NCBI GenBank assembly: GCA_007375645.1
Contig: VMER01000001.1
Coordinates: 209,211 to 273,210 of the forward strand
Source: Parcubacteria group bacterium LiPW_15
Lineage (GTDB): Bacteria; Patescibacteriota; Minisyncoccia; UBA6257; 2-01-FULL-56-20
DNA length: 64,000 nt
Reading direction: 5' to 3'
Positions 3,744 through 61,372 of the stretch are shown here, piece by piece (the first letter of the stretch is position 1; each line of letters begins with the position of its first letter). A program made the translations under genes and the position numbers. Below the pieces are notes generated by a model. That model was not told the DNA's origin. It did no database searches and saw only the letters and a list, made by a program, of their open reading frames with translations.

Positions 3744-3865
3744 CCCGATTAGAAGCTAGTCGCAATTGCTCACGACTTTGCCGAAATTATAATTAATCAT
3801 GTCGACTATTATAGATTATTTTAGCATTTGGATGATCTAAAAGCGATTGCTGCTTCTAACGGGAC

Positions 3866-4357
3866 TCAGGCCAATTCAATTTTTTCTCCGCGGCTTCGGG
3901 CAGCGCAGGGACCGCAAAAAAAGTTCTGGCTTGCGATATGGAACGCGAAAACATTTCCCCGACCGCAATGTTCGCAAGAAGCATGTTCCGGATCCCAGCC
4001 CAAGATCGCCAATATCTTTCGCCAATCTTTAACGCCCGCGAGAAGCGTGGTCCAAAGATATTCGTCCGGTTCGCCTTCCGCCAAAACTCTTCCCAAAAGA
4101 TAGAAAAAATCCGGAGGTCCGGAGAGCTTTCCCCGTTTTAAAGCGTCCACCACCTGGAGACTTCCCTTCTCTATCATCCGGACGCGAATAAAATTACCCG
4201 GCTCAAGATGCGGAGAAAGTTTGGAGGTTATCTTCCTGGAGCTTTTTACTTTTGCCGAAAATTTTCCGAGGCTTCGCGTAAAAACCGCGACCCGCTCGTC
4301 GAGTTCGCCCTGGGGTTCTTTTTCTAAAACTATCGCTTCGCTTACATACTCATTCAT
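3866..4357 (-). CDS. recO: DNA repair protein RecO (short form)
   Basis: 163 aa; RecO N-terminal OB-fold-like region and C-terminal CxxC...CxxC zinc finger (CEHCG...CGPCA). Confidence 0.72.
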   Translation of the reverse strand: MNEYVSEAIVLEKEPQGELDERVAVFTRSLGKFSAKVKSSRKITSKLSPHLEPGNFIRVRMIEKGSLQVVDALKRGKLSGPPDFFYLLGRVLAEGEPDEYLWTTLLAGVKDWRKILAILGWDPEHASCEHCGRGNVFAFHIASQNFFCGPCAARSRGEKIELA

Positions 4358-6255: not shown

Positions 6256-6339
6256 GCACAGGTGGTAGAGCGGTCAAATACAAGAGACTGTAAATCTCTC
6301 GCCCATGTGGCTACGCAGGTTCGAATCCTGCCCTGTGCA
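6256..6339 (+). tRNA. tRNA-Tyr (anticodon GTA), long variable arm
   Basis: Manual fold: acceptor GCACAGG/CCTGTGC, 3-bp D-stem with GAGCGGTCAAA loop (nearly identical to E. coli tRNA-Tyr), anticodon stem AGAGA/TCTCT with loop CTGTAAA, long variable arm, T-arm GCAGG-TTCGAAT-CCTGC, discriminator A; CCA not encoded. Confidence 0.8.
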
Positions 6340-6462
6340 CAATATAAAGATTTTGCCCTTACGGTGGTGTCTCGTTGTGACATCGACAAACGTGTTCGAA
6401 TCTCCCGAGATTACTCGGGATTACGCATCTCTACGTCGCTACGCTTCAAGAGCTGCGAGAAC

Positions 6463-8280: not shown

Positions 8281-9375
8281 TTATTCAATCACCCCTCCGC
8301 CGAGCATTATGTCATTTTTCACACCCTCCTTCGCTGAAGCTTCGGAGGGCAAGTAAATGACCGCGGATTGGCCGGGGGCCACGAACTTCTGAGATTTTTT
8401 AAAATCCAATCTCCATCCTCCTTTTTCCTTGACCAAAACAGCCGGGAATAAAGGCTGGCGATAGCGAACACGGGCGGATACTTCAAGAGGATAGTGAATA
8501 GTAGATGGCGAATAGTTGAAATTTACGTCGGTAAGATAAACGGATTTTTCATAAAGAGCAGGATTATCGCTACCCTCCGCGACTACCAGAATATTTTTCT
8601 TCACATCTTTTTTGGCTACATAAAGAGGAACATGGTTTTTTTGGCCCTTCTCATGCTTTAAGTTTCCCACTCCGCCACGCTGGCCGATAGTATAAAAATG
8701 AGCACCAAAATGTTCCCCCACCTTTTCTCCCTTCAAGTTCAAAACCGCGCCTTTTTTCTCCGGAAGATAACTCTTCAGAAAATCTTTAATGGAGACCATG
8801 CCTAAAAAGCATATTCCTTGCGAGTCTTTTTTCTCCGCCGTGGATATTCCGGCTTTTTTGGCGATTTTTCTCACCTCCGGCTTCAGATAATCCCCTATCG
8901 GGAAAAGGGATTTCTCTATCTGCTTCGCGGTCAGAGTCCACAAAAAATAGCTTTGGTCCTTATTCTTGTCCGCGGCGATAGCCAAAGAATTATTTTTCTT
9001 TTTAACGTAATGTCCGGTAGCCACAAAATCGGCCCCGAGCCTCATCGCCCTATCGAAAAATATTCCGAATTTTATCTCCCGGTTGCACATCACATCCGGA
9101 TTCGGGGTAAGGCCTTTCTTATATCCGGCGACCATATAATCCACCACATGTCTTTTATATTCTTTTTCAAAATCCCAAGTGTAAAACGGGATGCTTAAAT
9201 GTTCCGCCACTCGGCGCGCGTCTTCCGCGTCTCGGTCTTGGCAGTTATCTATGTTATAGCCGCGAATAAAAACACCGACTACATCGTAGCCTTGTTTCTT
9301 AAGTAAATACGCGGCAACGGAGCTATCCACTCCCCCCGACATACCGACAAAAACTTTTTTCTTGGCCTTTTTCAT
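8281..9375 (-). CDS. mnmA: tRNA-specific 2-thiouridylase MnmA
   Basis: 364 aa; PP-loop SGGVDSS, catalytic Cys motifs, MnmA domain order. Confidence 0.93.
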   Translation of the reverse strand: MKKAKKKVFVGMSGGVDSSVAAYLLKKQGYDVVGVFIRGYNIDNCQDRDAEDARRVAEHLSIPFYTWDFEKEYKRHVVDYMVAGYKKGLTPNPDVMCNREIKFGIFFDRAMRLGADFVATGHYVKKKNNSLAIAADKNKDQSYFLWTLTAKQIEKSLFPIGDYLKPEVRKIAKKAGISTAEKKDSQGICFLGMVSIKDFLKSYLPEKKGAVLNLKGEKVGEHFGAHFYTIGQRGGVGNLKHEKGQKNHVPLYVAKKDVKKNILVVAEGSDNPALYEKSVYLTDVNFNYSPSTIHYPLEVSARVRYRQPLFPAVLVKEKGGWRLDFKKSQKFVAPGQSAVIYLPSEASAKEGVKNDIMLGGGVIE

Positions 9376-16996: not shown

Positions 16997-18646
16997 TTAT
17001 TTTGATTTTGATTTTATTTTCGACAAAGCGTATTCCAGGCTCGAACCAACTTTCTTTCCGGGATTAAAGATATTTTCCGGGTCAAATATCTTTTTTACTT
17101 CTTCAAAAAGACCGTAAACCTTTTCTCCATACATTTTCTTGAGATAGGGACTGCGTATCAATCCATCGTTATGCTCGGCGGTGATGGAGCCGTGGAATGT
17201 GAGAACAAGCGCATAAACCTTTTCCATAAGTTCCGGGATTATCCTTTTGGTTTCCGGATCATCCAGATTCATCAACGGAATTATGTGAAAATTGCCGTTT
17301 CCAATATGCCCCGCAATCGTATAAATCAGTTTCCCAGAATATGGTAGAAGTATAGCATCAAGTCGAGGTAAAAACTCGCTCAAATCTTCCGGACGGACAA
17401 CAAAATCATCGATAAACGGCGCAGTCTGCTTGTCTTTTATCCTATTCCTCAAAAGATTGAAGCTTTCTCGTCGCATGGTCCAATACTTATCTCCTTCGGC
17501 TTCGCTTTTGATGACCCTGATCGTTATCGGAAGTTTCGTGAGGTCATCCCGCATTCGAACCAGCCGCTCGTCCAATTTGCCCTCGTCGTTATCGGTAAGT
17601 TCCACCAGGAAAATCAATTTGGGCACACCGCCCCGCAAGACCATAAAAAACTCCGGCAGGAACTGAAGCGCGAGTTTCAAAAAATTCTTGGCTTTCATAA
17701 CCCGGATAATATCAAAAAAGAATCTGAGCGCGATCTTTAGAGTATTGTCGTCAAAGGACTCGATGCTTTCCGGGTGATAAGCGAGCGCCCGGCGCGCGAA
17801 TTCGCTGACCGGCTTCTGGTCTTTCAAAAACGCCACCAAAAGTTTTGAGTATTTCTTTTTGGGAATGAGTTTTAATCTGGCTTCGGTTATAAGCCCCAAA
17901 GTCCCCTGTGCCCCGCAAAAAAGCTTGGCCAGATTAAAATGCTCGCCGTCCCAGATATTCCAAAGCGCGTACCCTGCGGTATTCTTGCTGACCTTCGGTC
18001 TCGCATTTTCTATCGTTTCCAAGTTATCAAAAACAAGCGAACGCATTTTGGAATATATCTTCCCTTCAAAATTATTTTCCGCGGCCTTCGCTTCCAACTC
18101 CTTTCGGGCCAGGGGTCCGAAAGAATATTCTTCGCCGTCGGACAAAACCGCCTTAACCTCGGTAATATATTTTTCGGTTTGCCCATAGGCCAAAGTTTTT
18201 TCTCCGGCAGAATTATTGGCCACCATCCCCCCTAGGGCACAGATACTCTTGGAGGCCGGGTAAGACGGCAACATCACTCCAAGTTTGTCCGTCTCTTTTT
18301 CCAGATCTCGGTAAAATAATCCAGGCTCTACAACTGCTTCATCTTTGTTTAACCCGATAAGCTTGTTTAAGTGCGCGGTAAAATCCACCACGATGGATTC
18401 GCCCAATGGTCCGCCGCCCATGTCGGTTCCACCGGAACGCGCCGATATTTCCATTTTGATGTCCCCTGCCGCCCGGTGCGCGGAAACGAATTTAACGAGC
18501 GCTTTAAGCGCGTCTCTGGTTTTGGGCCGAACAATAACCTGCGGCTTTATTTCAAAAATAGATGCATCCCGCGCGTAAAACTCCCGGGACTTTTCGTCAT
18601 CCAATACTTCTCCGTCAAATATTTTTTCTATCGCCTCTTTAAGCAC
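16997..18646 (-). CDS. FAD-binding oxidoreductase (FAD-linked oxidase, GlcD/D-lactate dehydrogenase-like)
   Basis: 549 aa; FAD-binding PCMH domain followed by FAD-oxidase C-terminal domain. Confidence 0.85.
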   Translation of the reverse strand: MLKEAIEKIFDGEVLDDEKSREFYARDASIFEIKPQVIVRPKTRDALKALVKFVSAHRAAGDIKMEISARSGGTDMGGGPLGESIVVDFTAHLNKLIGLNKDEAVVEPGLFYRDLEKETDKLGVMLPSYPASKSICALGGMVANNSAGEKTLAYGQTEKYITEVKAVLSDGEEYSFGPLARKELEAKAAENNFEGKIYSKMRSLVFDNLETIENARPKVSKNTAGYALWNIWDGEHFNLAKLFCGAQGTLGLITEARLKLIPKKKYSKLLVAFLKDQKPVSEFARRALAYHPESIESFDDNTLKIALRFFFDIIRVMKAKNFLKLALQFLPEFFMVLRGGVPKLIFLVELTDNDEGKLDERLVRMRDDLTKLPITIRVIKSEAEGDKYWTMRRESFNLLRNRIKDKQTAPFIDDFVVRPEDLSEFLPRLDAILLPYSGKLIYTIAGHIGNGNFHIIPLMNLDDPETKRIIPELMEKVYALVLTFHGSITAEHNDGLIRSPYLKKMYGEKVYGLFEEVKKIFDPENIFNPGKKVGSSLEYALSKIKSKSK

Positions 18647-25492: not shown

Positions 25493-26014
25493 TTAGATAT
25501 GCGCTTCTTCTTGTTTTTCCGCCGCCCTTATGTCCACCAGGTAATAGTAGAAAACGCCGCCGGCCACAATGAGTATTGAAGCCGCCTTCAAGATAAAGGA
25601 TATCGGCGGAAATCCATCCAAAAATTTATTTATCGTCGCGATCAGATCCCCCGCCAAGGTAATGGCGGAAATAAAAAGTGTGAGATATACGAGCCACTTT
25701 CGAATGCGCAGATGTTTTTTGTCCGCATCCTTTTCGTACTGCTTATGAAGATAATTGTTGAGATAGAGGAAAAGCGGGAAAAGGACCACCAGGCTCGAGA
25801 TAGCAAACCGGATGGTGGAATCCGCAAAATTAGTCGGAGAATATCCGTAAGCATTTAAAGTTTCCGGAAAATATTTATCCACGAGCTCAAAAACCAGCAC
25901 GAGAAAACTGACCGCCGAATAATACAGGAGGCCCACCGTAAAAAGATGCAGGAAAAAGTCCTTAGGCGACGCTTTTTTTAGTGATTTGCTGTCCGTTTGT
26001 GTTATTTGTTCCAT
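25493..26014 (-). CDS. Hypothetical integral membrane protein
   Basis: 173 aa; about 4 TM. Confidence 0.55.
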   Translation of the reverse strand: MEQITQTDSKSLKKASPKDFFLHLFTVGLLYYSAVSFLVLVFELVDKYFPETLNAYGYSPTNFADSTIRFAISSLVVLFPLFLYLNNYLHKQYEKDADKKHLRIRKWLVYLTLFISAITLAGDLIATINKFLDGFPPISFILKAASILIVAGGVFYYYLVDIRAAEKQEEAHI

Positions 26015-26998: not shown

Positions 26999-28381
26999 TT
27001 ACTCGAAAAACCTTTTCCCTCTCACCCGCTTATGATAAGTGATGGCAAAGCGATGAGCCTCGTCCCGCACTTTGGTTAGCGTGTTTTTGTCGATTCCTCT
27101 GGGAACGATGCCGATTATGTCCGTCCGCTTCCTATCCGGCCCCTTAACCATGCCAATGACCGGGATGCGCAAACCGTTCTCGTCCAAAACTTTTTTAACC
27201 GCGTTTATTTGTCCCGCTCCGCCGTCAACCAGGATAAGTTCGGGCAAGGGCCAGGAGTTTCCGAGACGCCGGCGGATGACTTCTTTCATCATCCCCACGT
27301 CCCCTCCTCCACTCTTAAGCGCGGAGCTACGGAGGGCAGGATTGGGTTCGGAAAAATTCTGAATCTTAAATTTCCGATATTCGTTCTTATCCGGTTCGTT
27401 TCCGGCGAAAACCACCATAGAGCCTACCGCGGACTCCCCGGAAATGTTTGAAATGTCATAACCCTCGATTCGGACGGATGACTTACTCTCTACGCTCGGC
27501 AACAGAGAATCTTCTTTTATGAGCGCGACGTCCTGAATGTGTTGTAACGCAAAGAGCTGTCTCTTTAATCTCTCCGCCTCTTCAAATTCCAGCTTTTTGC
27601 CGGCTCGGATCATTTCTTTCTTCAGATTTTTTATAAGTTTCTCTTTTTTGCCGGCGAAGAACATTTTTAACTTCCCGATGCGTTTTTTGTAATCCGCGCT
27701 CGTTATCGCACCGATACAGGTGCCGGGACAAAGCCCTATTTCATATTCAAAACAGGCGCGTTTGAACTTCGCGTCTTTGGGGTGTATTGACCACGGGAAA
27801 ATCTTTCTCAAGATTCTCATAGCCTCTTTGAGCGCAGAAGCAGACGTGAACGGGCCGTAAGTGGCGCTTCGATTTTTTCCTTTGCCCTCTCGAACCTGCC
27901 TGCCGGCAGGCAGGGCTTCAGCGGAGTAGGGTCGGGCCAAAAGATCCTTGCCACGGACCAAAAGCACCCGCGGGAACTTTTCTTTGGTAATTTCCACATA
28001 CAAAAAACTCTTGTCGTCTTTTTCGAGGACATTATATGGCGGTTGGATTTTCTTAATAAGTTCCGCCTCGAGTATCAACGCCTCTATCGCCGTATCCGTA
28101 TTCCGCGTTTCGATATCGCGGATCTCCCCTACCATTTTCTGAATACGGGGAGCGTGCCTACCCTCCGAAGCCTTACCGCGCCCTCCGAAACCTTGCGTGG
28201 AGGATGGGGCGAAGGAGGGGGGACGGTTAAAGTAGCTCGAAACCCGGCGCTTTAAATTCGCCGCTTTGCCAACATAAAGGATCGCGCCCTTTGCATCTTT
28301 CATTAAGTACACGCCCGGAGTGTCCGGCAAATCCCCACACCTATTGAAAAAATTTGTATTGTTTGGTTTATATCTAGCCAT
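26999..28381 (-). CDS. uvrC: Excinuclease ABC subunit C (UvrC; compact form with a low-complexity insert)
   Basis: GIY-YIG N-terminus (GVYLMKDAKGAILYVGKAANLKRR), UvrBC-interaction and endonuclease regions. Confidence 0.88.
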   Translation of the reverse strand: MARYKPNNTNFFNRCGDLPDTPGVYLMKDAKGAILYVGKAANLKRRVSSYFNRPPSFAPSSTQGFGGRGKASEGRHAPRIQKMVGEIRDIETRNTDTAIEALILEAELIKKIQPPYNVLEKDDKSFLYVEITKEKFPRVLLVRGKDLLARPYSAEALPAGRQVREGKGKNRSATYGPFTSASALKEAMRILRKIFPWSIHPKDAKFKRACFEYEIGLCPGTCIGAITSADYKKRIGKLKMFFAGKKEKLIKNLKKEMIRAGKKLEFEEAERLKRQLFALQHIQDVALIKEDSLLPSVESKSSVRIEGYDISNISGESAVGSMVVFAGNEPDKNEYRKFKIQNFSEPNPALRSSALKSGGGDVGMMKEVIRRRLGNSWPLPELILVDGGAGQINAVKKVLDENGLRIPVIGMVKGPDRKRTDIIGIVPRGIDKNTLTKVRDEAHRFAITYHKRVRGKRFFE

Positions 28382-32973: not shown

Positions 32974-35511
32974 TTACTTTCCCTGTTTAAGCACGTGGCG
33001 AAGATACTGAGCCGTAAAACTCTTTGGATTTCTCGCTACTTCTTCCGGCGTTCCCTGGGCGACAATTTCTCCTCCCCTTTCTCCGCCCTCGGGCCCGAGA
33101 TCGATAACCCAGTCCGCGCTTTTAATGACATCCAAATTATGTTCAATGACTACCACGGTGTTCCCCCGGTCCACCAAGCGCTGTAAAACAACGAGAAGCT
33201 GCTCGATGTCCGCAAAGTGAAGTCCGGTGGTCGGCTCATCCAAAAGATAAAGTGTTTTGCGGGTATCACGCTTGCCGAGTTCCGCTGCGAGCTTAACGCG
33301 TTGCGCCTCTCCGCCCGAAAGCGTGGTCGCGGATTGTCCGAGCTCCAGATAACCCAAGCCGACTTCTTCCAGAATACTCAATCGGTCTTTAAGCCACGGA
33401 ATGTCGTCGAAAAACTTGTGCGCCTCTTCGATGGTCATCTTAAGAATGTCGTAAATATTCTTTCCTTTGTATTCCACCTCCAATGTTTCCCTATCAAACC
33501 GCTTTCCCTTACAAATATCGCACTCCACGTAGACCGTGGGCAGAAAATGCATTTCGATAGCTAAGGTCCCATGGCCTTCGCAGTTTTCACAGCGTCCGCC
33601 GGGCACGTTGAAGCTGAACCGGCCCGGTTTATAACCTCGAACTCTCGCATCTTCGGTAGTCGCGAAAAGATCCCGGATAAAAGTCCAAGCGCCGACGTAA
33701 GTGGCCGGATTGGACCGCGGAGTGCGGCCTATCGCTCCCTGGTCGATATTAATGACCCTGTTCATATATTCCAATCCCAGAATGGATTTTACCGCTCCGG
33801 TCTTGATGCCTTCTCCAAGCTCATGGAATTTGCGGGCGATGTTTCTATGAAGCACGTCATAAACCAACGTGGATTTTCCGGAACCGGAAACACCGGTCAC
33901 GGCCGTAAACCTCCCGAGCGGAATATCCACATTTATATTTTTTAAATTATTGGCCGAAGCTCCGCGTATCTTTATCGCTTCTTTGTCCTTGGAAACTTTT
34001 CTTCGGATTTCGGGAATTTCTATCTCCCGCTTCCCGCGCAAAAAATCCAAGGTGAGCGAGTTTTGAGTCTTGTCTTTAAGCAGTTCCGGCATCGGTCCTT
34101 GGGCAATGACCCTGCCGCCGTGCACGCCCGCCCCCGGCCCGAAGTCCACCAAATAATCCGCGGAACGGATAGTATCCTCATCATGCTCCACTACGATCAC
34201 GGTATTTCCCAGATCCCGCAGTTTCTCGAGTGTTTGAATGAGTTTCGCGTTATCTCTCTGGTGCAAACCAATAGTCGGCTCATCCAATATATAGAGAGTT
34301 CCAACCAGCCTGGAACCTATCTGGGATGCCAGGCGAATACGCTGAGCCTCCCCGCCCGAAAGCGTACCGGCCTTGCGGCCCAAAGTCAGATAATCCAAAC
34401 CCACATCCAAAAGAAATTTCAGTCTGGCTTTGATCTCCCGAAGAGGCGCCTCGGAAACTTCTTTAAACCTTTCGTTGCGATTCGAGAAGCTCATGTCGCC
34501 GAAGAATTTGTTGGCTTCTTCGATGGACATATTTACCACTGAATTTATATTTTTGTCTTTGACCAAAACGCTCAAAGCTTCTTTTTTTAAACGCTTACCT
34601 TCGCAAACGTCGCAAAGGTCTTCGGACCAAAGTTCTTTGACGCCCAAACCGTGGCAGGTCTCACAAGCGCCGTAAGGGCTGTTGAAAGAAAATAACCGCG
34701 GTTCGATCTCCGGGAACGAAAAACCGTCGTTGGGGCAGGTGAATTGCGCGGAAAGCGAAACCTCTTTATCGGTTAAGACAGTCAAAACGTTCTTACCGTA
34801 TTTCAAGGCGGATTCCACCGCTTCCGCGAGGCGCAAGCGGTTGTCTTTATCTTTAAAATCCATCCCGCCCGGAATTCTGTCGACTACAAGTTCAATGGTG
34901 TGCTGTTTGTAGCGCGCGAGCTCGATCCGCTCATGAAGCGAATGCATTTTGCCATCCACGCGGACCTCTCTGAAGCCGGCGTTTAAAAGATCGTAAAGCG
35001 TTTGATAATATTCTCCCTTTCTTCCGCGGATCACAGGCGCCAAGATCAAAAGATTATTTTTCTTCTTGTCCTCTTTGGAAATTTGAATGACTGCGTCCAC
35101 GATCTCTTCATTGGTCATCTTGCGAATTTCCGTTCCGCACTCCGGACAATGAGGAGTTCCCGCGCGCGCGAAAAGTACGCGCAGATAATCATAAATTTCG
35201 GTGATGGTCGCGACCGTGGAACGAGGATTCGAAGAATGGCTTTTCTGGTCAATAGAAATCGCCGGAGACAATCCTTCTATCTCATCCACGTCCGGTTTCT
35301 CGAATCTTCCCAAAAATTGTCTGGCGTAAGCAGAAAGGGATTCTATATATCGCCTCTGTCCTTCGGCAAAAATGGTATCAAAAGCCAAACTGGATTTTCC
35401 CGAGCCGGATAGTCCCGTCAAAACGGTCATCTTATCCCGCGGAATTTCCAGGTTTATGTTTTTGAGATTGTGCTCTCTGGCTCCTCTTATTTTGATTTTG
35501 TCTTGTGCCAT
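32974..35511 (-). CDS. uvrA: Excinuclease ABC subunit A (UvrA, compact 845-aa form)
   Basis: Two ABC ATPase modules ([18 protein letters not shown]) and zinc-finger Cys motifs. Confidence 0.95.
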
Positions 35512-38593: not shown

Positions 38594-38623
38594 AGGGCCC
38601 CTCGCGGGGGGCCCTCTTTTTTT
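38594..38623. terminator. Bidirectional intrinsic terminator GGGCCCCTCGCGGGGGGCCC plus T-run
   Basis: Seen directly; overlaps the stop of 38622..39326. Confidence 0.55.
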
Positions 38624-39326
38624 ACCTCAAATATTTATCCCAATATCCGTAAAGCGCGCTTGTGGCTTTTAAATCGCCAACGTTATACCTCGCAATATCA
38701 ATATATTTCTTTTCTTTAAATAATCGACTAACGTCATCCCCCGTCACTCCATCCTCCTTTGGGCTCTTTATTCCGAAAGCCCTGCTCCACAAATGAAGTC
38801 CGCCCTTCCTGCGCGTTGCTCCGTAAAAAGTCAGCTGGTCAAAGAGATCAATATGCCGAACTCCCCTTTGCTGATACAGATATCTTCCTTCCATCAGATC
38901 CACGCTCGGCCGGATCTTATATATCGCCGACCGCACGGCCAAAAACGGCGCGTCAAACATTCGCCCGTTGAAAGTTATAAACTCATCGTATTCTTTCGCT
39001 CCATCCCAAAAATTTTTGAGCATTTCTTTTTCGCTCATCGGCCGAAATCTTATTCCGTCCTCGGTAAATTCTTTAGCCTCCACATCCGGCGATTGAAAAT
39101 ATACTGCGCCCTGCTCTTTGTCCGGATCATAAACCCCGATGACCACTATTTCTCCGGTCAAAGGAGAAAAGCCCATACCGCCCTTCAGTTCTTCAAGTGC
39201 TGTTTCATATTCTTCGGTGCTGTCCGAATCCTTTTTTATCCAGCGCGTCAAAACATCCTGGGTCGCGTGATCCAGGGCGTTAAAATCTTCTCCGACCGTC
39301 TCGATGTCAAAAACAAGTCTCGGCAT
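38622..39326 (-). CDS. RNase H-like 3'-5' exonuclease (DnaQ/PolB-exo-like, DEDD)
   Basis: LVFDIETVG (Exo I motif DxE), downstream YNVGD..H motifs; 234 aa. Confidence 0.68.
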   Translation of the reverse strand: MPRLVFDIETVGEDFNALDHATQDVLTRWIKKDSDSTEEYETALEELKGGMGFSPLTGEIVVIGVYDPDKEQGAVYFQSPDVEAKEFTEDGIRFRPMSEKEMLKNFWDGAKEYDEFITFNGRMFDAPFLAVRSAIYKIRPSVDLMEGRYLYQQRGVRHIDLFDQLTFYGATRRKGGLHLWSRAFGIKSPKEDGVTGDDVSRLFKEKKYIDIARYNVGDLKATSALYGYWDKYLR

Positions 39327-44266: not shown

Positions 44267-44608
44267 CTATTTTATCCCACTTCCCGGTGTCGCTTCCCTG
44301 TCGGGACACAAAAGCGCAATTCCCGTCTCATCGCTCGCGGCCAAAAGCATTCCGTTGGATTCCTGGCCCATTAGCGCCCTGGGCTCCAAGTTGGCGACAA
44401 TAACAATTTCTTTCCCCACCAACTGTTCCGGCTCATAAAACTTGCCGATACCTCCCAATATCTGCCGGTTGACCGGGTTCCCGGCTTCGTCTTTGTCGCC
44501 GGCGGAGAGCTGCATTTTTATAAGCTTCTCCGAGCCCTCCACCCGCACGGCTTCGAGCACCTTCGCGACCCTTAATTCAATCTTTGAAAAATCGTCATAA
44601 TTTATCAT
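44267..44608 (-). CDS. tRNA-binding protein (CsaA/EMAP-like OB-fold)
   Basis: 113 aa; MetRS C-terminal-like tRNA-binding domain pattern. Confidence 0.78.
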   Translation of the reverse strand: MINYDDFSKIELRVAKVLEAVRVEGSEKLIKMQLSAGDKDEAGNPVNRQILGGIGKFYEPEQLVGKEIVIVANLEPRALMGQESNGMLLAASDETGIALLCPDREATPGSGIK

Positions 44609-46839: not shown

Positions 46840-47613
46840 TTAAAACTTTTTTACACACACATACAGAAATAGCGGAATCTCTTTGCGAGCCTTATTTTCG
46901 GCTTTTGCACGAGGCCCGGGTTGGCTCACCTTGCCCGAATTCCATTCCTCAAGCTTGGTAACGGCGAGTCTAAGCTTTGAAAATATCTTGAAGTAATACT
47001 GCAACGGCCGATGAAACGAAACGGTAAACAAGTCTGGCGCATCGCCGGGGTGCATCTGTATTTTATTTTTTGATTCCGAAAGGTATTCGTCGATCCGCCT
47101 ATACTGAATTTTGTTTTCGTCATCGTATCCCCAGGAGGTTACCTTCGGGTTACGAAAAACCGGATGATTCATAACCAGATGAAGGCTGCCGCCGACCTTC
47201 AATATCCTGGCACATTCACTCAAGACTTTATCCACGCTCTCAATGTTCTGCAAAGCAAGCACAATGACAATCTTATTTATGCTAGCGTTTTTTATAAAAG
47301 GTAAAGATTCGGCGTTGGAAACCTGAAATTCCCCTTCCGGGGCTGATTCCCTAGCAACACCGATCAACTCAGAAGATATATCTATCCCTAGAACTTTCGC
47401 GCCTGCTTTGATAAATTCCTTGCTGAAAAACCCCGGCCCGCAAGCCAGGTCCAAAATCTTATCTCCGCGCTTAATATCCATGAGCCGCAAAAGATTCGGG
47501 AGTATGACCTCTTTTTGATAAGTCCCCTCCCCGGAAAGGAGTTTCTCATACCACTTGGCCACCCCGCCCCAAGAAGTCTTATTTCTTTCTTCCATCTTTT
47601 TTAATTTTAGCAT
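46840..47613 (-). CDS. Class I SAM-dependent methyltransferase
   Basis: LDLACGPG SAM motif I; start may be the internal MEERNK (47595), which would give a small overlap with uvrB. Confidence 0.8.
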   Translation of the reverse strand: MLKLKKMEERNKTSWGGVAKWYEKLLSGEGTYQKEVILPNLLRLMDIKRGDKILDLACGPGFFSKEFIKAGAKVLGIDISSELIGVARESAPEGEFQVSNAESLPFIKNASINKIVIVLALQNIESVDKVLSECARILKVGGSLHLVMNHPVFRNPKVTSWGYDDENKIQYRRIDEYLSESKNKIQMHPGDAPDLFTVSFHRPLQYYFKIFSKLRLAVTKLEEWNSGKVSQPGPRAKAENKARKEIPLFLYVCVKKF

Positions 47614-49606
47614 CTTTCTCCAGCTTATTTGTTTTCTTCATAAGCTCCCGTATCTCATCACGTAAAATAGCGGCAAGCTCAAAATCCAATTCCTTAGCCG
47701 CTAATTTCATTTCCCTTTCCTTGTCTGCGATGAGTTTCAAAAGCGCGGTCTTGGAACGCGGCATTGGTCCGGTCTCCAATTTCAATATTTCCTCAACTGG
47801 CAAAATATCCCGTATTTCTTTGATAACCGTGGTCGGAGTTATGTTGTGCTTCTTGTTATATGCCAGCTGGATCTCGCGTCTGCGGTTGGTTTCTTTGATA
47901 GCCCGCTCTAAAGAACCGGTTATGTGGTCCGCGTACATCAAGACCTCGCCCGCAACGTTTCTAGCCGCACGTCCGATGGTTTGGATAAGCGAAGTTTCGC
48001 TCCGTAAAAATCCCTCTTTATCTGCGTCCAGTATTGCGACCAGTGTTACCTCCGGCAAATCCAATCCTTCGCGCAAAAGGTTCACCCCGACCAGCACGTC
48101 AAAATTGCCTTTACGCAGATTGGTAAGTATCTTAATGCGCTCCAAGGTCTCCACGTCGCTATGGAGATAATTCACCTTGATGCCCTTGCCGGCAAGATAT
48201 TCCGTAAGGTCCTCCGCCATCTTTTTGGTAAGAGTCGTGATAAGAACTCTCTCTTTTCTGGCCACCCTCTCTTCAACTCTGGGAATCAGGTCCTGCACCT
48301 GGCCCTTGGCCGGCAGAATGGTTATTTTGGGGTCAACCAGCCCGGTCGGACGAATTATCTGCTCCACAATTTTTTCGCTCACTTTTTTTTCATAAGGGCC
48401 GGGGGTCGCGGAAGTAAAGATTATTTGGCCGACGCGCTTATTGAACTCCTCAAAACGCAAAGGCCGGTTATCCGCCGCGGACGGCAATCTAAATCCATAT
48501 TCAATAAGAGTCTTTTTGCGCGCCGCATCGCCCTCAGACATTCCCCCGATCTGGGAAACAGTCACGTGAGATTCATCGATGACGGTTAAAAAGTCCGGCT
48601 CCCCCGATTCAGTATGAGGAAAATAATTGAGCAGTGTATCCGGCGCCTCGCCTCTCGCCCGGCCCGAAAGCGGCTGGGAATAGTTTTCTATACCGTGGCA
48701 ATATCCGACTTCGCGGATCATCGCCAGATCGAACTTCGTTCTCCGCTCCAACCTTTCCGCCTCCAACAACTTTCCGTTTTCTTCAAAGTACTTGAGTCGT
48801 TCTTTTAATTCTTTTTGCACCGCGGCAACAGCCCGCTCCCTGTCGATCGGCGAAGTTATAAAGTGTTTGGCCGGAGCGATGTATATTTCCGGAAACTCGG
48901 GAGTAACACCCGGGCGAAAACCTTCCGCCGGAATTATTTCGTATATCTTTTTGATAACGTCGTCTTCCAGAACAAAGTTGTAGATAAGTTCCCTGTCCGG
49001 CGGCATTATCTCCCAGTTGTCTCCGCGCAAGCGAAAACTCCCCCGCGTGAGGTCGCTTGGCGTGCGGGTAAACTGCATGGAGATAAGCTGTCTCGTAAGC
49101 GCTTTCCTGTCTATCTTTTCGCCCACCGCGAAACGGATGATATTTTTTGCGTAGGTTTCCGGCGCGCCCAAACCGTAGATGCAGGAGACGGAAGCCACAA
49201 TGATAACATCCTTGCGGGTCAGCAAAGCAGTCGTCGCCGCATGGCGCAGCTTATCTATCTCTTCGTTTATCATCGCCTCTTTTTCAATATACGTATCGCT
49301 CGTGGGCATATACGCCTCCGGCTGATAATAATCGTAGTAGGAAACGAAGTAGTGCACCGCATTTTTCGGAAATATTTCCCGGAACTCGTTGCAAAGCTGG
49401 GCGGCCAAGGTCTTGTTATGGGCGATAACCAAAGTCGGCTTCTGCGCCTCGTTTATAACGTTCGCAATGGTAAATGTTTTTCCCGAACCGGTCACGCCCA
49501 AAAGGGTTTGATGCCGCAAGCCGTCTTCCAATCCCAAGACAAGCTCTTTTATAGCCTTGGGTTGATCACCGGATGGGATGTTTTTTGAAATAAGTTCGAA
49601 CTTCAT
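47579..49606 (-). CDS. uvrB: Excinuclease ABC subunit B
   Basis: Helicase motifs GVTGSGKT, DESH; UvrB beta-hairpin and C-terminal UVR domain. Confidence 0.95.
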   Translation of the reverse strand: MKFELISKNIPSGDQPKAIKELVLGLEDGLRHQTLLGVTGSGKTFTIANVINEAQKPTLVIAHNKTLAAQLCNEFREIFPKNAVHYFVSYYDYYQPEAYMPTSDTYIEKEAMINEEIDKLRHAATTALLTRKDVIIVASVSCIYGLGAPETYAKNIIRFAVGEKIDRKALTRQLISMQFTRTPSDLTRGSFRLRGDNWEIMPPDRELIYNFVLEDDVIKKIYEIIPAEGFRPGVTPEFPEIYIAPAKHFITSPIDRERAVAAVQKELKERLKYFEENGKLLEAERLERRTKFDLAMIREVGYCHGIENYSQPLSGRARGEAPDTLLNYFPHTESGEPDFLTVIDESHVTVSQIGGMSEGDAARKKTLIEYGFRLPSAADNRPLRFEEFNKRVGQIIFTSATPGPYEKKVSEKIVEQIIRPTGLVDPKITILPAKGQVQDLIPRVEERVARKERVLITTLTKKMAEDLTEYLAGKGIKVNYLHSDVETLERIKILTNLRKGNFDVLVGVNLLREGLDLPEVTLVAILDADKEGFLRSETSLIQTIGRAARNVAGEVLMYADHITGSLERAIKETNRRREIQLAYNKKHNITPTTVIKEIRDILPVEEILKLETGPMPRSKTALLKLIADKEREMKLAAKELDFELAAILRDEIRELMKKTNKLEKDAKIKKDGRKK

Positions 49607-49629
49607 TGTATGTGCTAATTATATCTTAA

Positions 49630-49868
49630 AAACGAAAAAGGGCCCGGATGAGGCCCTTGGCAGTTTGCCTGACGAAGAGGTATTTCACTGTCGGCTCAGA
49701 AACCCCCGCAAGGGCCCGTCAAAGCCTCCCTACTACTATTCTACGCGACCAGGCACCCTCTCCAAAGTTCAGCTCCGGGGATTCGAACCCCGCGCTCATT
49801 AATCGTCCGCATCCAGCGGGTCGACCCCAGGGATTCAAACCCTGTGCCCCTTAACTGCCTCATCCGAG
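49630..49868 (-). ncRNA. Candidate structured ncRNA or cis-regulatory leader (about 240 nt) with its own promoter and intrinsic terminator, immediately upstream of uvrB
   Basis: Minus strand: -35 TTGACA / -10 TAATAT at 49876..49904; two T-loop-like hairpins (CAGGG-TTTGAAT-CCCTG, CGGGG-TTCGAAT-CCCCG); terminal GGGCC-TCATCC-GGGCCC plus U-run ending about 23 nt before the uvrB ATG; no ORF. Confidence 0.4.
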
Positions 49869-49875
49869 CAAATGG

Positions 49876-49904
49876 ATATTATCTCCCACCTCCCGGCCTG
49901 TCAA
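49876..49904 (-). promoter_or_regulatory. Sigma70-like promoter TTGACA-17-TAATAT
   Basis: Reverse complement of 49876..49904. Confidence 0.45.
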
Positions 49905-49919
49905 ACATAAACCAAATGA

Positions 49920-51488
49920 TTAAAGCGTTTCGTAATTGGACTTGAGCCAGTTAAGCAGGTTCTTCGTATCCGAATATCTGTCTCCGGAATTCAGCACGAT
50001 TATAGAAACGGGTACGTCCCCGCTCGGAGTATGGATGTTCCAAACCGAAGCGATAGTTTGTCCGGCGGCTTTTGTTTCTCCGTTTTTCATGCCGATCAGA
50101 TCCGTTTCTCCGGAAAACTCGTTGAAGTTGGCCAGGTCGCCGATGCTTATGGAATCACCGATTTTAATAAGTCCGTTGCGTTCGAATTCCACTCCCTTGC
50201 CGATATCAAAGATGAACGGGCGTTTGTAATAAATATATTGAAGTAATTTGGAAATATCTTTGGCGGTAGAAACATCCTGTGTGCTCAATCCGGACGGATC
50301 GGCGAACCGCGTGTCCAACATGTTGAGCGAGGCGGCCTTGTCGTTCATGCTTTTCACAAAAAGCCTGCTGCCGGAAAAGGACGCCAAAACATTCGCCGCG
50401 TCATTCGAGGATTGCATTAAAAGCGGGTAAAGAAGGTCGAAACCGGTATAATAACTTCCGGAATTAAAGTGGAAAGCCTTGGTAGAACTGCTTCCGCCAG
50501 TGGTCGAAGTCGGAAGCTGTCCGACTCGAATGGAACTTCCAAGATAGATTAGCTCGTGGGCCACCACTCCGGTCATGAGTTTGGTTATCGAGGCGGTCGG
50601 CAGCTTTTCGTTCGAATTTTTTTCAACAATTGTTTCGCCGGAGGCCACATTGGAGATCAAAAAGGATTCCGCGCTTATTGCCGGCAACCCGGCATTCTGC
50701 ACCTTTGGAACAAGCGTTCCGAATCCCCGGTCCGGCATGTCTTCAAACACCAGTATCGGCATCCCCTTTTTGGCAAAATCGAAAACTTCCTTTGCGCCCT
50801 CGTCGGAAAGCCTGATACATCCTCCGGAATATGTTTTCTGAACCGGAGTTCCGTCATTGTAATGCGGCCAGCCATGTATAAAATAATTGCCGTAGAACTG
50901 GATGCTGTATGGCATCCAAACTTTTCCGATGGAAGAAAAATGGTTCACCTCTTTGACTATCACTCCGTAATTTCCGGTAGGAGTCTCCCACCAGCTGCCT
51001 AGCCTGCCCTTGGTCAATATCTCGATCTCTTTTTCCGCAGCTCCCCCGCGATAGAGCGTGAGTTGCATTGTCTTTAGATTTGCCTCAATGAAGTCTTGCT
51101 TTTCCTCCACATACTCTTCCTTTTTGGTTAAAAACCTCTGTTCGTCCGGAAAGATCATTTCGCCCGAATCCGTGAATGATATTTCCGAAGCCGCCAAGCG
51201 GGAATAAAAATTCCGCACCCGCACCGAATTCGTATCGGCCAGATCCAATCTATCCTGCCAGAGAAAATATATTCCGGCGGACACGGCGCAAATGATCATC
51301 AAAAACGCAAAAAACGGCTGAACCCAGCCGTGCCGTTTGCCCGATAAAACATAGTCGCAAACTTTAAAAGCGTTATTTATATCCGCCTCACCCCAGCCTG
51401 CCTCGGAAAGAGAAGCGCGTATCGCGTCTTTAGACCGTCCGGAATTCAGCGAATCACGGACATATTTTACGATTTCTTCGTCGGCCAT
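49920..51488 (-). CDS. Bifunctional L,D-transpeptidase (YkuD) / serine-type D-Ala-D-Ala carboxypeptidase fusion, membrane-anchored
   Basis: HGWPHYNDGTPVQKTYSGGCIRL (LDT catalytic His/Cys) followed by SITKLMT (SxxK), SSN (SxN) and KNG-like motifs. Confidence 0.78.
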   Translation of the reverse strand: MADEEIVKYVRDSLNSGRSKDAIRASLSEAGWGEADINNAFKVCDYVLSGKRHGWVQPFFAFLMIICAVSAGIYFLWQDRLDLADTNSVRVRNFYSRLAASEISFTDSGEMIFPDEQRFLTKKEEYVEEKQDFIEANLKTMQLTLYRGGAAEKEIEILTKGRLGSWWETPTGNYGVIVKEVNHFSSIGKVWMPYSIQFYGNYFIHGWPHYNDGTPVQKTYSGGCIRLSDEGAKEVFDFAKKGMPILVFEDMPDRGFGTLVPKVQNAGLPAISAESFLISNVASGETIVEKNSNEKLPTASITKLMTGVVAHELIYLGSSIRVGQLPTSTTGGSSSTKAFHFNSGSYYTGFDLLYPLLMQSSNDAANVLASFSGSRLFVKSMNDKAASLNMLDTRFADPSGLSTQDVSTAKDISKLLQYIYYKRPFIFDIGKGVEFERNGLIKIGDSISIGDLANFNEFSGETDLIGMKNGETKAAGQTIASVWNIHTPSGDVPVSIIVLNSGDRYSDTKNLLNWLKSNYETL

Positions 51489-61042: not shown

Positions 61043-61372
61043 TTATTTCCCCTCCTCGTCCTTCTTGAAGTCCTTATATTTCTCAACCGCTCTCTGGAGT
61101 TTGTCTTTAGCCAGGTCTATCGCGGCGTAAAGATCCTCCGCCTCTTCGCTCACCTGGAAAGTCTTGGCCGGAATGTGCAGGTTGGCCTTAGCCATATATA
61201 TCTGTCCTTTTTGGTGATGATGCGTGGTAAGAGCCAGCTCTAAGTGCAGATCGGCGGTTCCCTCGGCATCCAAGCGGCTCAAAACCTTCAAAATAGACTC
61301 GAACTTCTCTTCCGCATACGCCACTATGGCATCGGTGGATTCAAGATTCGTATATTTTATCTTTATGTTCAT
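61043..61372 (-). CDS. hpf: Ribosome hibernation promoting factor (HPF/RaiA, short form)
   Basis: 109 aa; sigma-54 modulation protein/S30EA fold pattern. Confidence 0.85.
   Translation of the reverse strand: MNIKIKYTNLESTDAIVAYAEEKFESILKVLSRLDAEGTADLHLELALTTHHHQKGQIYMAKANLHIPAKTFQVSEEAEDLYAAIDLAKDKLQRAVEKYKDFKKDEEGK

Follow-up and report, generated by a model that had tools for sequence, protein, structure and literature searches.

Introduction

The L1-stalk head of 23S ribosomal RNA (rRNA) docks on the G19:C56 platform at the elbow of transfer RNA (tRNA), and the role of the loop region of helices 76 and 77 (H76/H77) in this head has been described (PMC3664808). An isolated 55-nt fragment of L1-stalk rRNA binds protein L1 specifically, and L1 is known to bind both rRNA and its own mRNA (PMC2175363). 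In some lineages of the candidate phyla radiation (CPR) protein uL1 or helix 78 (H78) is missing (PMC9297842). Here we describe an element from this radiation that combines a copy of the L1 stalk with a tRNA-like module. It lies directly upstream of uvrB in a 64,000-nt stretch of DNA (the window) from Parcubacteria group bacterium LiPW_15 (contig VMER01000001.1, positions 209,211 to 273,210 of the forward strand), and as the L1 stalk of the CPR is already unusual, the element bears on the evolution of reduced ribosomes and their regulation. A description made from the sequence alone (the original prediction) had proposed that the segment is a novel small RNA or a terminator/antiterminator leader controlling uvrB. 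Both proposals are still live, although that description missed the L1-stalk homology and the duplication reported below, and the element is not a general uvrB leader. The explanation that we place first, if only tentatively, is that the element is a young, lineage-restricted, chimeric structured RNA whose L1-stalk head would dock on its own tRNA-like elbow.

Results

An L1-stalk homologue in the 3' half

The most informative feature of the element is its 3' half, which on covariance-model and alignment scores is clearly a homologue of the L1 stalk of 23S rRNA (H76 to H78; coordinates of this and all other features are collected in Table 1). The match to the bacterial large subunit (LSU) model of Rfam was seen first in a scan of a homologous element from a sister lineage (contig L217, positions 3851-3935 against model positions 2129-2212; 43.5 bits, E = 3.6e-12); a second, narrower scan, made on the window's domain alone, then gave 16.4 bits (E = 0.0016). 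Local alignment to an annotated 23S rRNA gave a score of 57 against a shuffled maximum of 31; the similarity is confined to the L1 domain, and the tRNA-like part showed no rRNA similarity in this alignment. The same kind of comparison with shuffles led us to reject a resemblance between the 3' flank of the T-arm and the GACCCCGUGAAC region of 23S domain V. The segment is not a 23S rRNA gene, for only model positions 2127-2214 match (full length about 2.9 kb, gathering score 50 bits) and the flanks are a peptidase gene and uvrB.

Both loop blocks of the stalk head are present and fit the Rfam consensus (GGGAGGCUUUGA as T-loop 1 and GUGAAAUACC, consensus UGAaAUACC, as T-loop 2), the assignment of these blocks to T-loops being by alignment to the Rfam model and not by residue-level mapping. 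An H78-like hairpin lies between them and is capped by a UNCG-type tetraloop (UGCG in the window, UUCG in the homologue); its arms differ from those of the homologue at most positions with the pairing kept. H76 has a non-canonical pair whose position is common to the window, L217 and a real 23S rRNA. The run of three UAG triplets to which the original prediction drew attention is present but has no coding meaning: in the alignment to the Rfam model it is the 5' bulge of H76 (consensus AGGAUAGGUGGG), which in the window is mutated and carries a 3-nt insertion. A public record containing this part of 23S rRNA, NZ_AP027616.1 (loci L229/L230; Escherichia coli strain LR-72 'plasmid pLR-72_4'), is a 2.9-kb circle consisting of a 23S rRNA gene only; its L1-stalk region does not resemble that of E. 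coli, and it is probably a contaminant or misassembly.

Table 1. Position of the element's features and of uvrB in the window
Feature	Position	Strand	Basis or remark
Sigma-70-type promoter, TTGACA-17-TAATAT	49904-49876	-	consensus scan, 10/12 matches
Predicted transcription start	near G49869	-	promoter position
P1 5' strand, GCUCGGAUGAGGC	49869-49857	-	first 13 nt of predicted RNA; 13-nt inverted repeat; invariant in window and homologue
Module A (P1 5' strand, GG-rich linker, T-arm 1)	49869-49818	-	5' copy of 52-nt tandem duplication
Acceptor-like 5' strand, GCAGUUA	49858-49852	-	pairs with GAGCUGA
T-arm 1 hairpin, CAGGG-UUUGAAU-CCCUG	49844-49828	-	in module A
Module B (degenerate P1-strand copy, T-arm 2, acceptor-like 3' strand)	49817-49766	-	3' copy of duplication
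T-arm 2 hairpin, CGGGG-UUCGAAU-CCCCG	49792-49776	-	in module B
Acceptor-like 3' strand, GAGCUGA, then A	49775-49769	-	directly 3' of T-arm 2
L1-stalk-like domain (23S rRNA helices 76-78)	49755-49666	-	Rfam LSU_rRNA_bacteria positions 2127-2214
UAG run, GUAGAAUAGUAGUAGGG	around 49742-49729	-	mutated H76 5' bulge
GGGAGGCUUUGA block (H76/H77 loop region; T-loop 1 of L1 stalk head)	49730-49719	-	fits Rfam consensus
H78-like hairpin, UNCG-type tetraloop	49717-49700	-	pairing kept in homologue
GUGAAAUACC block (2162-2173 loop; T-loop 2 of L1 stalk head)	49688-49679	-	fits Rfam consensus
Intrinsic terminator, AAGGGCCU-CAUCC-GGGCCCUU then UUUUUCGUUUUU	hairpin 49658-49638, whole 49658-49628	-	terminator scan
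P1 3' strand, GCCUCAUCCGGGC	49654-49642	-	complement of P1 5' strand (repeat search)
TATAAT box, 11 nt before uvrB ATG	49623-49618	-	conserved in window, L217 group and L214
uvrB	47579-49606, ATG at 49606	-	ORF; UvrB Pfam domains in homologues

A duplicated tRNA-like module in the 5' half

The 5' module is, judged from its sequence and pairing, a mimic of the 'upper half' of a tRNA. Its T-arm has a 5-bp stem and a 7-nt loop of the form UUCRANN both in the window (T-arm 2) and in L217 (CGGGG-UUCGACC-CCCCG, followed there too by GAGCUGA), and the acceptor-like stem, which abuts the T-stem directly, has five of seven pairs in the window and six of seven in the homologue, where the 5' strand is GCAGCUU. 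A 12-nt GG-containing linker takes the place of the D and anticodon arms in the homologue. The two T-arm-like hairpins of the original prediction are genuine T-arm mimics and lie where it had put them; from the alignment of the modules they are the product of a tandem duplication of the first 52 nt (104 nt in all) and not independent modules. Modules A and B are identical at 37/53 positions (alignment score 54 against a shuffled maximum of 37). Module B is aligned by a covariance model built on the homologue (69 bits, E about 1e-14), with its T-arm and 3' strand identical to the homologue, and part of its degenerate copy of the P1 strand forms a small hairpin (49819-49807). In T-arm 1 the residue corresponding to C56 is changed to U (loop UUUGAAU), and relative to T-arm 2 its stem pairing is kept through a G-C to A-U double change. 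On thermodynamic folding the two T-arms of the window can also pair with each other.

ARAGORN found neither tRNA nor transfer-messenger RNA (tmRNA) in the element, its nearest call being a tRNA-Tyr 43 kb away; at thresholds of 80% and lower it returned only poor, overlapping, mismatched pseudo-cloverleaves of 89-98 nt. The Rfam search that the original prediction had recommended was run over all families and none reached its gathering score on the element. At E<=10 only the LSU fragment is meaningful, matches to SraG, snoRNA, mir and Gut-1 families being noise, and there are weak partial matches to mascRNA and, at the 3' end only, to tmRNA (8.7 bits, E = 0.11, where the model requires >47 bits). 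These searches agree with the earlier view that the segment is not one or two canonical tRNAs (no RF00005 cloverleaf was found by ARAGORN or by covariance model) and is not RNase P RNA or signal recognition particle (SRP) RNA. The exclusion of tmRNA likewise stands, for RF00023 and its permuted forms: pair 3 is A-U and not G3:U70, there is no 5' GGGG and there are no pseudoknots, ARAGORN -m made no call, and a candidate tag frame ending in LVA is not conserved in L217. Y-RNA-type families gave no match at E<=10, and no Ro-like gene was noticed among the window's open reading frames (ORFs), which were not profile-scanned. The tRNA-Tyr gene mentioned above (6256-6340, plus strand) has no encoded CCA: its acceptor ends ...CCTGTGCA and is followed by CAA, so that CCA must be added post-transcriptionally. 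As this tRNA is itself without an encoded CCA, little can be read from the absence of CCA in the tRNA-like part of the element.

A non-coding promoter-to-terminator unit

The element occupies a 313-nt gap (49607-49919) between a YkuD/peptidase_S11 gene (49920-51488) and uvrB, and all its features are on the minus strand. The segment is a G-rich island, and its GC content (0.585 against about 0.48 in the surroundings) goes beyond chance. The promoter of the original prediction was recovered at the same position by consensus scan, and 35/37 nt of it are the same in the sister-lineage homologue, compared with 66-80% at four-fold degenerate sites. A terminator scan likewise found the strong intrinsic terminator that had been placed before uvrB, together with its U tract; it has an 8-bp stem and a 5-nt loop (hairpin ΔG −12.3 kcal/mol), and shows one compensatory G-C to A-U change relative to the homologue. 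The element as a whole reads in the uvrB direction and stops about 22 nt short of that gene in both lineages. The description of the segment as ORF-free needs qualifying, since ORFs of 20-74 amino acids exist on both strands; none is conserved. In the homologue the sense ORF meets a stop after 15 codons, window and homologue do not share their antisense frames, and a protein search with a 68-amino-acid antisense ORF found no homologue among 5.8 billion proteins. A protein-coding reading was rejected on the ORF survey, this search and the comparison of frames with L217, and the segment is a real, non-coding promoter-to-terminator unit.

A terminal helix that conflicts with the terminator

The first 13 nt of the predicted RNA are complementary to a stretch close to its 3' end. 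The resulting helix, P1, has 13 pairs (12 Watson-Crick and one G-U; duplex ΔG −25.4 kcal/mol), and by a rough estimate well under 0.01 such 5'/3' complementarities of 13 nt would be expected by chance in 313 nt. The 3' strand of P1 takes in 3 nt of the 5' arm of the terminator, its loop and 4 nt of its 3' arm, so that the two structures overlap, and the folding calculations indicate that P1 and the intrinsic terminator are mutually exclusive. Alternative terminator/antiterminator folds, which the original prediction had suggested looking for, are therefore predicted for the locus: the best predicted fold with P1 is more stable than the best with the terminator by 11 kcal/mol in the window and by 5 kcal/mol in the homologue, and P1 is already part of the minimum free energy (MFE) structure of the nascent 224-nt RNA. 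A miniature inverted-repeat transposable element (MITE) with 13-bp terminal inverted repeats was considered but is not supported: no second copy was found in the window or elsewhere, and the right-hand 'repeat' belongs to a hairpin that is present in relatives too.

Sharing of the 3' strand of P1 with the terminator is the layout of ON-type transcriptional riboswitches, and the most serious alternative to a free RNA is that the element acts in cis as a terminator/antiterminator leader of uvrB. On this explanation P1 would form once GCCUCAUCC emerges, helped by docking of the L1 head on the elbow, and the folded three-way junction would let P1 block the terminator and allow read-through into uvrB; if the 5' strand were lost or occupied, whether by RNase P-type cleavage, by a bound factor or by free tRNA competing for the L1 head, the terminator would form. 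The overlap of P1 with the loop and both arms of the terminator, the greater stability of the P1 fold and its early appearance in the nascent RNA all favour such a leader, as does the invariance of both P1 strands in the two lineages, when relatives show that the terminator loop can vary freely. The element is also co-oriented with uvrB and close to it in both lineages. In relatives that lack it, uvrB is preceded at about 50-60 nt by a similar promoter (TTTGAC, with GCCGGRA in the spacer), and a hairpin stands where the element has its terminator; because of these similarities the element looks like an insertion into a uvrB leader.

Other observations speak for separate expression of uvrB. The TATAAT box lying between the terminator and the ATG is probably uvrB's own promoter, giving a near-leaderless mRNA. 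Boxes of this −10-like type that end 6-12 nt before starts are over-represented in the window (11 in these 7 positions, where about 3 would be expected from the 18 found in 42 positions further upstream), and a Shine-Dalgarno (SD)-like motif precedes only 9/65 of its long ORFs, which suggests that near-leaderless transcription is widespread in this genome. Long ORFs that served as examples in this survey, all on the minus strand, are 8281-9375, 16997-18646, 25493-26014, 38622-39326 and 44267-44608. Near-leaderless mRNAs therefore appear to be the rule, and uvrB is probably transcribed from a start of its own; since the conserved TATAAT box fits this pattern, uvrB need not depend on read-through. 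A 13-bp P1 of about −25 kcal/mol is moreover far too stable for a usual ligand-dependent riboswitch, no known signal or logic links mimicry of tRNA or the L1 stalk to nucleotide excision repair, and the arrangement is found in only two lineages. The strong terminator with its long U tract and the conserved TATAAT box favour a free RNA. Overall we regard a pure leader as possible but slightly less probable than an RNA that is free, or free and leader at once. Two further excision-repair genes, uvrC and uvrA (26999-28381 and 32974-35511, minus strand; identified by N-termini only), are in the same 64-kb window as uvrB and not adjacent to it.

A T-box riboswitch (RF00230) was rejected: neither the window nor L217 gave a T-box match at E<=10, it is uvrB that lies downstream, and the window's T-box-like string (AGGGUGCCUGGUCGCG) is not conserved in L217.

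Conservation in a sister lineage

A search based on the upstream peptidase identified homologues of the element in contigs L217, L218, L220, L223, L224 and L225 and, in part, in L219, L221 and L226. They come from groundwater metagenomes of more than one project (PRJNA268031 among them) and from one metagenome-assembled genome at NCBI (GCA_964489165.1); the homologue had assembled identically in six contigs, which speaks for a genuine sequence. The homologue (L217:3782-3972, promoter at 3747) lies at the same place upstream of uvrB, has a single T-arm and is 191 nt long, compared with about 240 nt in the window.

Set against a background of 66-80% identity between window and L217 at four-fold degenerate sites of the flanking genes, conservation is concentrated in blocks. 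The promoter with the 5' end of the RNA is the same at 52/54 positions, the T-arm with the acceptor 3' strand and the following AACUU at 27/29, the GGGAGGCUUUGA block at 12/12 and the second loop block (GUGARAUACC) at 9/10; from the terminator to the ATG of uvrB the two are nearly identical. The arms of H76, the arms of H78 and the linkers are different at most positions. A manual pair table shows changes on both sides, with pairing kept, at three pairs of H78 and at a single pair each of outer H76, inner H76 and the terminator; in the strain variant L226 a U-G pair of H76 has become U-A. In the model-fitted alignment 93% of cells are paired and five pairs are changed on both sides; slid controls gave 38-60% paired and 0-2 such changes. 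The conservation in relatives that the original prediction had put forward as a check is thus present in a second lineage, block by block and with stems that change by compensation.

Narrow distribution and the possibility of a relic

By its UvrB the window belongs to Patescibacteria/Parcubacteria. The element is confined to these two sister lineages and is not a general uvrB leader. It was not found by a UvrB-based synteny search in loci L001-L080 or in the close relatives L081-L086, L215 and L216; the covariance model built on the homologue gave no third variant over 22 loci; and there was no further copy in the window, in 229 loci, in phage records searched by BLAST or in two pattern scans of viral contigs, which (T-arm with flank; T-arm with L1 motif) returned nothing or the anticodon arms of tRNA-Gln as false positives. 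A metagenome scan requiring both T-arms about 50 nt apart also found no homologue. A third lineage is possible in the case of L214, which shares the GATATAAT box and whose contig is cut 17 nt upstream of uvrB. Homologous leaders of uvrB, another check proposed at the outset, therefore exist in one sister lineage and are absent from other relatives that are equally close: UvrB of the L217 lineage is 94.7% identical to that of the window, no closer than in lineages without the element, and relatives whose UvrB is 82-96% identical have something else upstream of uvrB.

What they have there differs. In L081, L082, L083, L215 and L086 small antisense Cys-rich ORFs with back-to-back promoters lie upstream of uvrB, and in L084 and L085 dsbB directly abuts it. 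These cassette ORFs (62-75 amino acids; L083:169-381, L086:2565-2753, L215:42-269 and L081:2527-2745, all on the minus strand) match nothing in Pfam, and back-to-back −35 boxes (GTCAA-N7-9-TTGAC) flank them; those of L083 and L086 have in common the pattern KHCxGK...DHTG...CxCGE.Y.H.YGA. At L081:2887-2935, and also in L082 and L222, a truncated duplicate of the 5' end of uvrB (MNKFELISKHQPSGD...) lies upstream of the real start with a different N-terminus; it is a recombination scar in the same intergenic hotspot. As equally close relatives carry other content upstream of uvrB, we regard this intergenic slot as a hotspot of cassette turnover. Among strains of the homologue type, 31 differences separate L225 from L217 in the peptidase gene (1578 nt), and both dsbB (570 nt) and the intergenic element (269 nt) are identical in the two; this clustering suggests a recombination tract among strains, and since dsbB is also invariant the absence of differences in the intergenic DNA is weak evidence.

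These facts have to be set beside a third explanation, that the element is a non-functional relic in which fragments of 23S rRNA and of tRNA or tmRNA were captured as filler between the uvrB promoter and its leader hairpin and are now decaying, its apparent conservation reflecting recent common ancestry and recombination. The hotspot slot, where relatives whose UvrB is 94-98% identical carry unrelated cassettes or nothing and one group has the truncated uvrB duplicate, would be as such an explanation expects, and so would the very narrow distribution with no further copy in the scans made, the clustered variation among L217-type strains and the state of the window copy, whose L1-stalk score is 27 bits below that of the sister copy and which has three broken pairs. 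Decay, however, should be even, whereas here the loops that are functional in rRNA are invariant and the stems change on both sides and keep pairing; the duplicated T-arm 1 has kept its stem through a double change, and promoter and terminator are intact in both lineages. Nor is a 13-bp complementarity of the 5' and 3' ends that includes loop sequence expected from captured fragments. We consider a relic rather unlikely and place it below both a free RNA and a leader.

Discussion

A chimeric RNA and its possible mode of action

The element is a predicted non-coding RNA that mimics both rRNA and tRNA, a combination found in no described RNA family and a member of none: no family of Rfam 15 matches it, and full-text literature searches on an L1-stalk mimic joined to a tRNA-like RNA returned nothing comparable. 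We propose that three parts meet at one junction, namely P1, the mimic of the tRNA upper half and the paralogous copy of the L1 stalk. P1, the acceptor-like stem and the T-stem could stack into one rod capped by the T-loop, and the L1 domain would hang from the junction of P1 and acceptor on single-stranded linkers of 13-15 nt. Since the domains are tethered and exactly the loops involved are conserved, we infer that the L1-stalk head stacks on the neighbouring T-loop elbow in cis, as the ribosomal L1 stalk does on tRNA in the E site, and that this docking would lock the junction and P1 into a compact fold. Transcription would start at the element's own strong promoter and end at the intrinsic terminator, P1 replacing the terminator hairpin after release, with uvrB served mainly by its own TATAAT box. 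The RNA would then probably act in trans as a mimic or decoy of the complex of L1 stalk and tRNA elbow, candidate partners being uL1, if it is encoded, or another factor that reads the L1-stalk/elbow surface.

In our ranking a free (or dual) RNA comes first, though still only as a tentative choice, followed by the pure leader and then by the decaying relic. A number of results weigh against the RNA as proposed. Termination may be inefficient, because the terminator has to compete with a more stable P1 whose 5' strand is transcribed earlier, in which case the RNA may be a uvrB leader; the similar promoter before uvrB in relatives without the element points the same way, and equally close relatives do without the element altogether. 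Compared with its sister copy, the L1 domain of the window has degraded (16 bits as against 43, and three broken pairs). The MFE of the whole transcript is unremarkable, with a z-score of only −1.57, and the homology-based fold lies well above the optimum (−57 against −75.5 kcal/mol in L217 and −63 against −100.5 kcal/mol in the window); such a gap is expected for an RNA rich in tertiary motifs, but the thermodynamics does not support the homology-based fold. Finally, the alignment in which the covariation was counted had been fitted to the structure, 15/500 shuffles reach the observed pairing values, and the covariation statistics are weak because there are only two distinct full-length sequences. 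The weight of the finding is limited by the very narrow distribution and by the partly degraded copy in the window.

Less favoured explanations

A more specific and distinctly speculative version of the proposal is that the element is an RNA replica of the E-site contact in which docking decides between P1 and the terminator and so gates uvrB, in a lineage that may have lost both uL1 and SD-led initiation. If this were true, the double T-loop module for elbow docking would have a fourth natural context besides the L1 stalk, RNase P and the T-box, and this would be the first to have both partners on a single RNA and a module taken straight from rRNA.

It is improbable that the element is instead a uL1-binding regulatory RNA, its L1-stalk copy titrating or sensing free uL1 and so coupling the unit, or uvrB, to the status of ribosome assembly. 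The domain is a near full-length L1 stalk, and the rRNA piece of 55 nt already suffices for specific binding of L1 (PMC2175363). Against this, the tRNA-like module would be left unexplained and the element is not beside rplK or rplA, neither of which was seen among 65 long ORFs of the window, inspected by their N-termini only; an autoregulatory uL1 operator is rejected by location, the downstream gene being uvrB and not a uL1 operon. The organism may not encode uL1 at all, as SD motifs are rare in the window, which agrees with the loss of the anti-SD motif reported in Parcubacteria that lack uL1 (PMC9297842). A role in titrating uL1 depends on the presence of rplA, and it overlaps with both the free-RNA and the leader explanations. 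An ORF of 109 amino acids resembling HPF/RaiA (61043-61372, minus strand; by its N-terminus only) adjoins secA in the window.

Pairs of T-loops 41-55 nt apart are common in loci L087-L213 (viral and metagenome contigs), and in the cases inspected, none of them homologous to the element, a complete tRNA is followed by a second copy of its 3' part (T-arm plus acceptor), the arrangement that attachment sites of integrating elements would show. The consensus T-arm loops, the weak partial tmRNA and mascRNA matches and this typical origin of double T-arms might suggest an unusual or tandem tRNA, a tmRNA gene or attachment-site remnants of a tRNA 3' end, an explanation effectively refuted by the negative ARAGORN and Rfam results and the missing G3:U70, 5' GGGG, conserved tag frame and pseudoknots, by the absence of a full tRNA next to the element (none within 43 kb), of any upstream of uvrB in 18 related loci and of an integrase nearby, and by a repeat that starts at the 5' end of the RNA and so includes more than a tRNA 3' end. 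The neighbourhood consists of housekeeping genes in conserved synteny.

Comparison with known systems

If the element is functional, it shows that part of an rRNA, once copied outside its ribosomal context, can combine with a tRNA mimic into a new non-coding RNA, and the sister-lineage form would provide a 190-nt single-molecule model of the contact between L1 stalk and tRNA elbow that is open to direct probing. If it is a relic, it is still a record of how fragments of rRNA and tRNA were captured, and cassettes rapidly replaced, at a single intergenic hotspot of closely related uncultured bacteria.

With the L1 stalk of 23S rRNA the element shares homology over about 85-90 nt, including the GGGAGGCUUUGA and UGARAUACC loop blocks and a UNCG-capped H78. 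Unlike the stalk in the ribosome, this copy is isolated between protein-coding genes with its own promoter and terminator, is joined to a tRNA-like module, has a terminal helix to close it, and in the window has several broken pairs. The uL1 operators of the bacterial L11 operon and the archaeal L1 operon are likewise extraribosomal L1-stalk-like RNAs in a 5' non-coding position (PMC2175363); they are short mimics before ribosomal protein genes (the L1-bound fragments used were of 36-38 nt), whereas the element copies nearly the whole stalk, precedes uvrB and carries a tRNA mimic, binding of L1 being here a candidate property only, in an organism that may lack uL1. Mimics of the tRNA upper half, such as the tRNA-like domain of tmRNA, minihelices, YrlA and mascRNA, resemble the 5' module in having an acceptor-like stem on a T-arm, a canonical T-loop and no anticodon arm, but the element is without G3:U70, an encoded CCA or a tag ORF, and no Ro-binding stem or family-level match was recognised. 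T-box leaders use the same class of elbow-docking motif as the L1 stalk head (PMC3664808) and combine it, as the element does, with an intrinsic terminator and a competing helix; the element, however, has no specifier loop, T-box sequence or UGGN bulge, does not precede an amino-acid gene, and has its candidate elbow in cis, within its own RNA. The layout as a whole, a multi-helix junction closed by a P1 whose 3' strand overlaps the terminator, is that of ON-type transcriptional riboswitches, from which the element differs in that its P1 is 13 bp long and stable without ligand and in that the terminator is followed by what is probably a separate promoter for uvrB.

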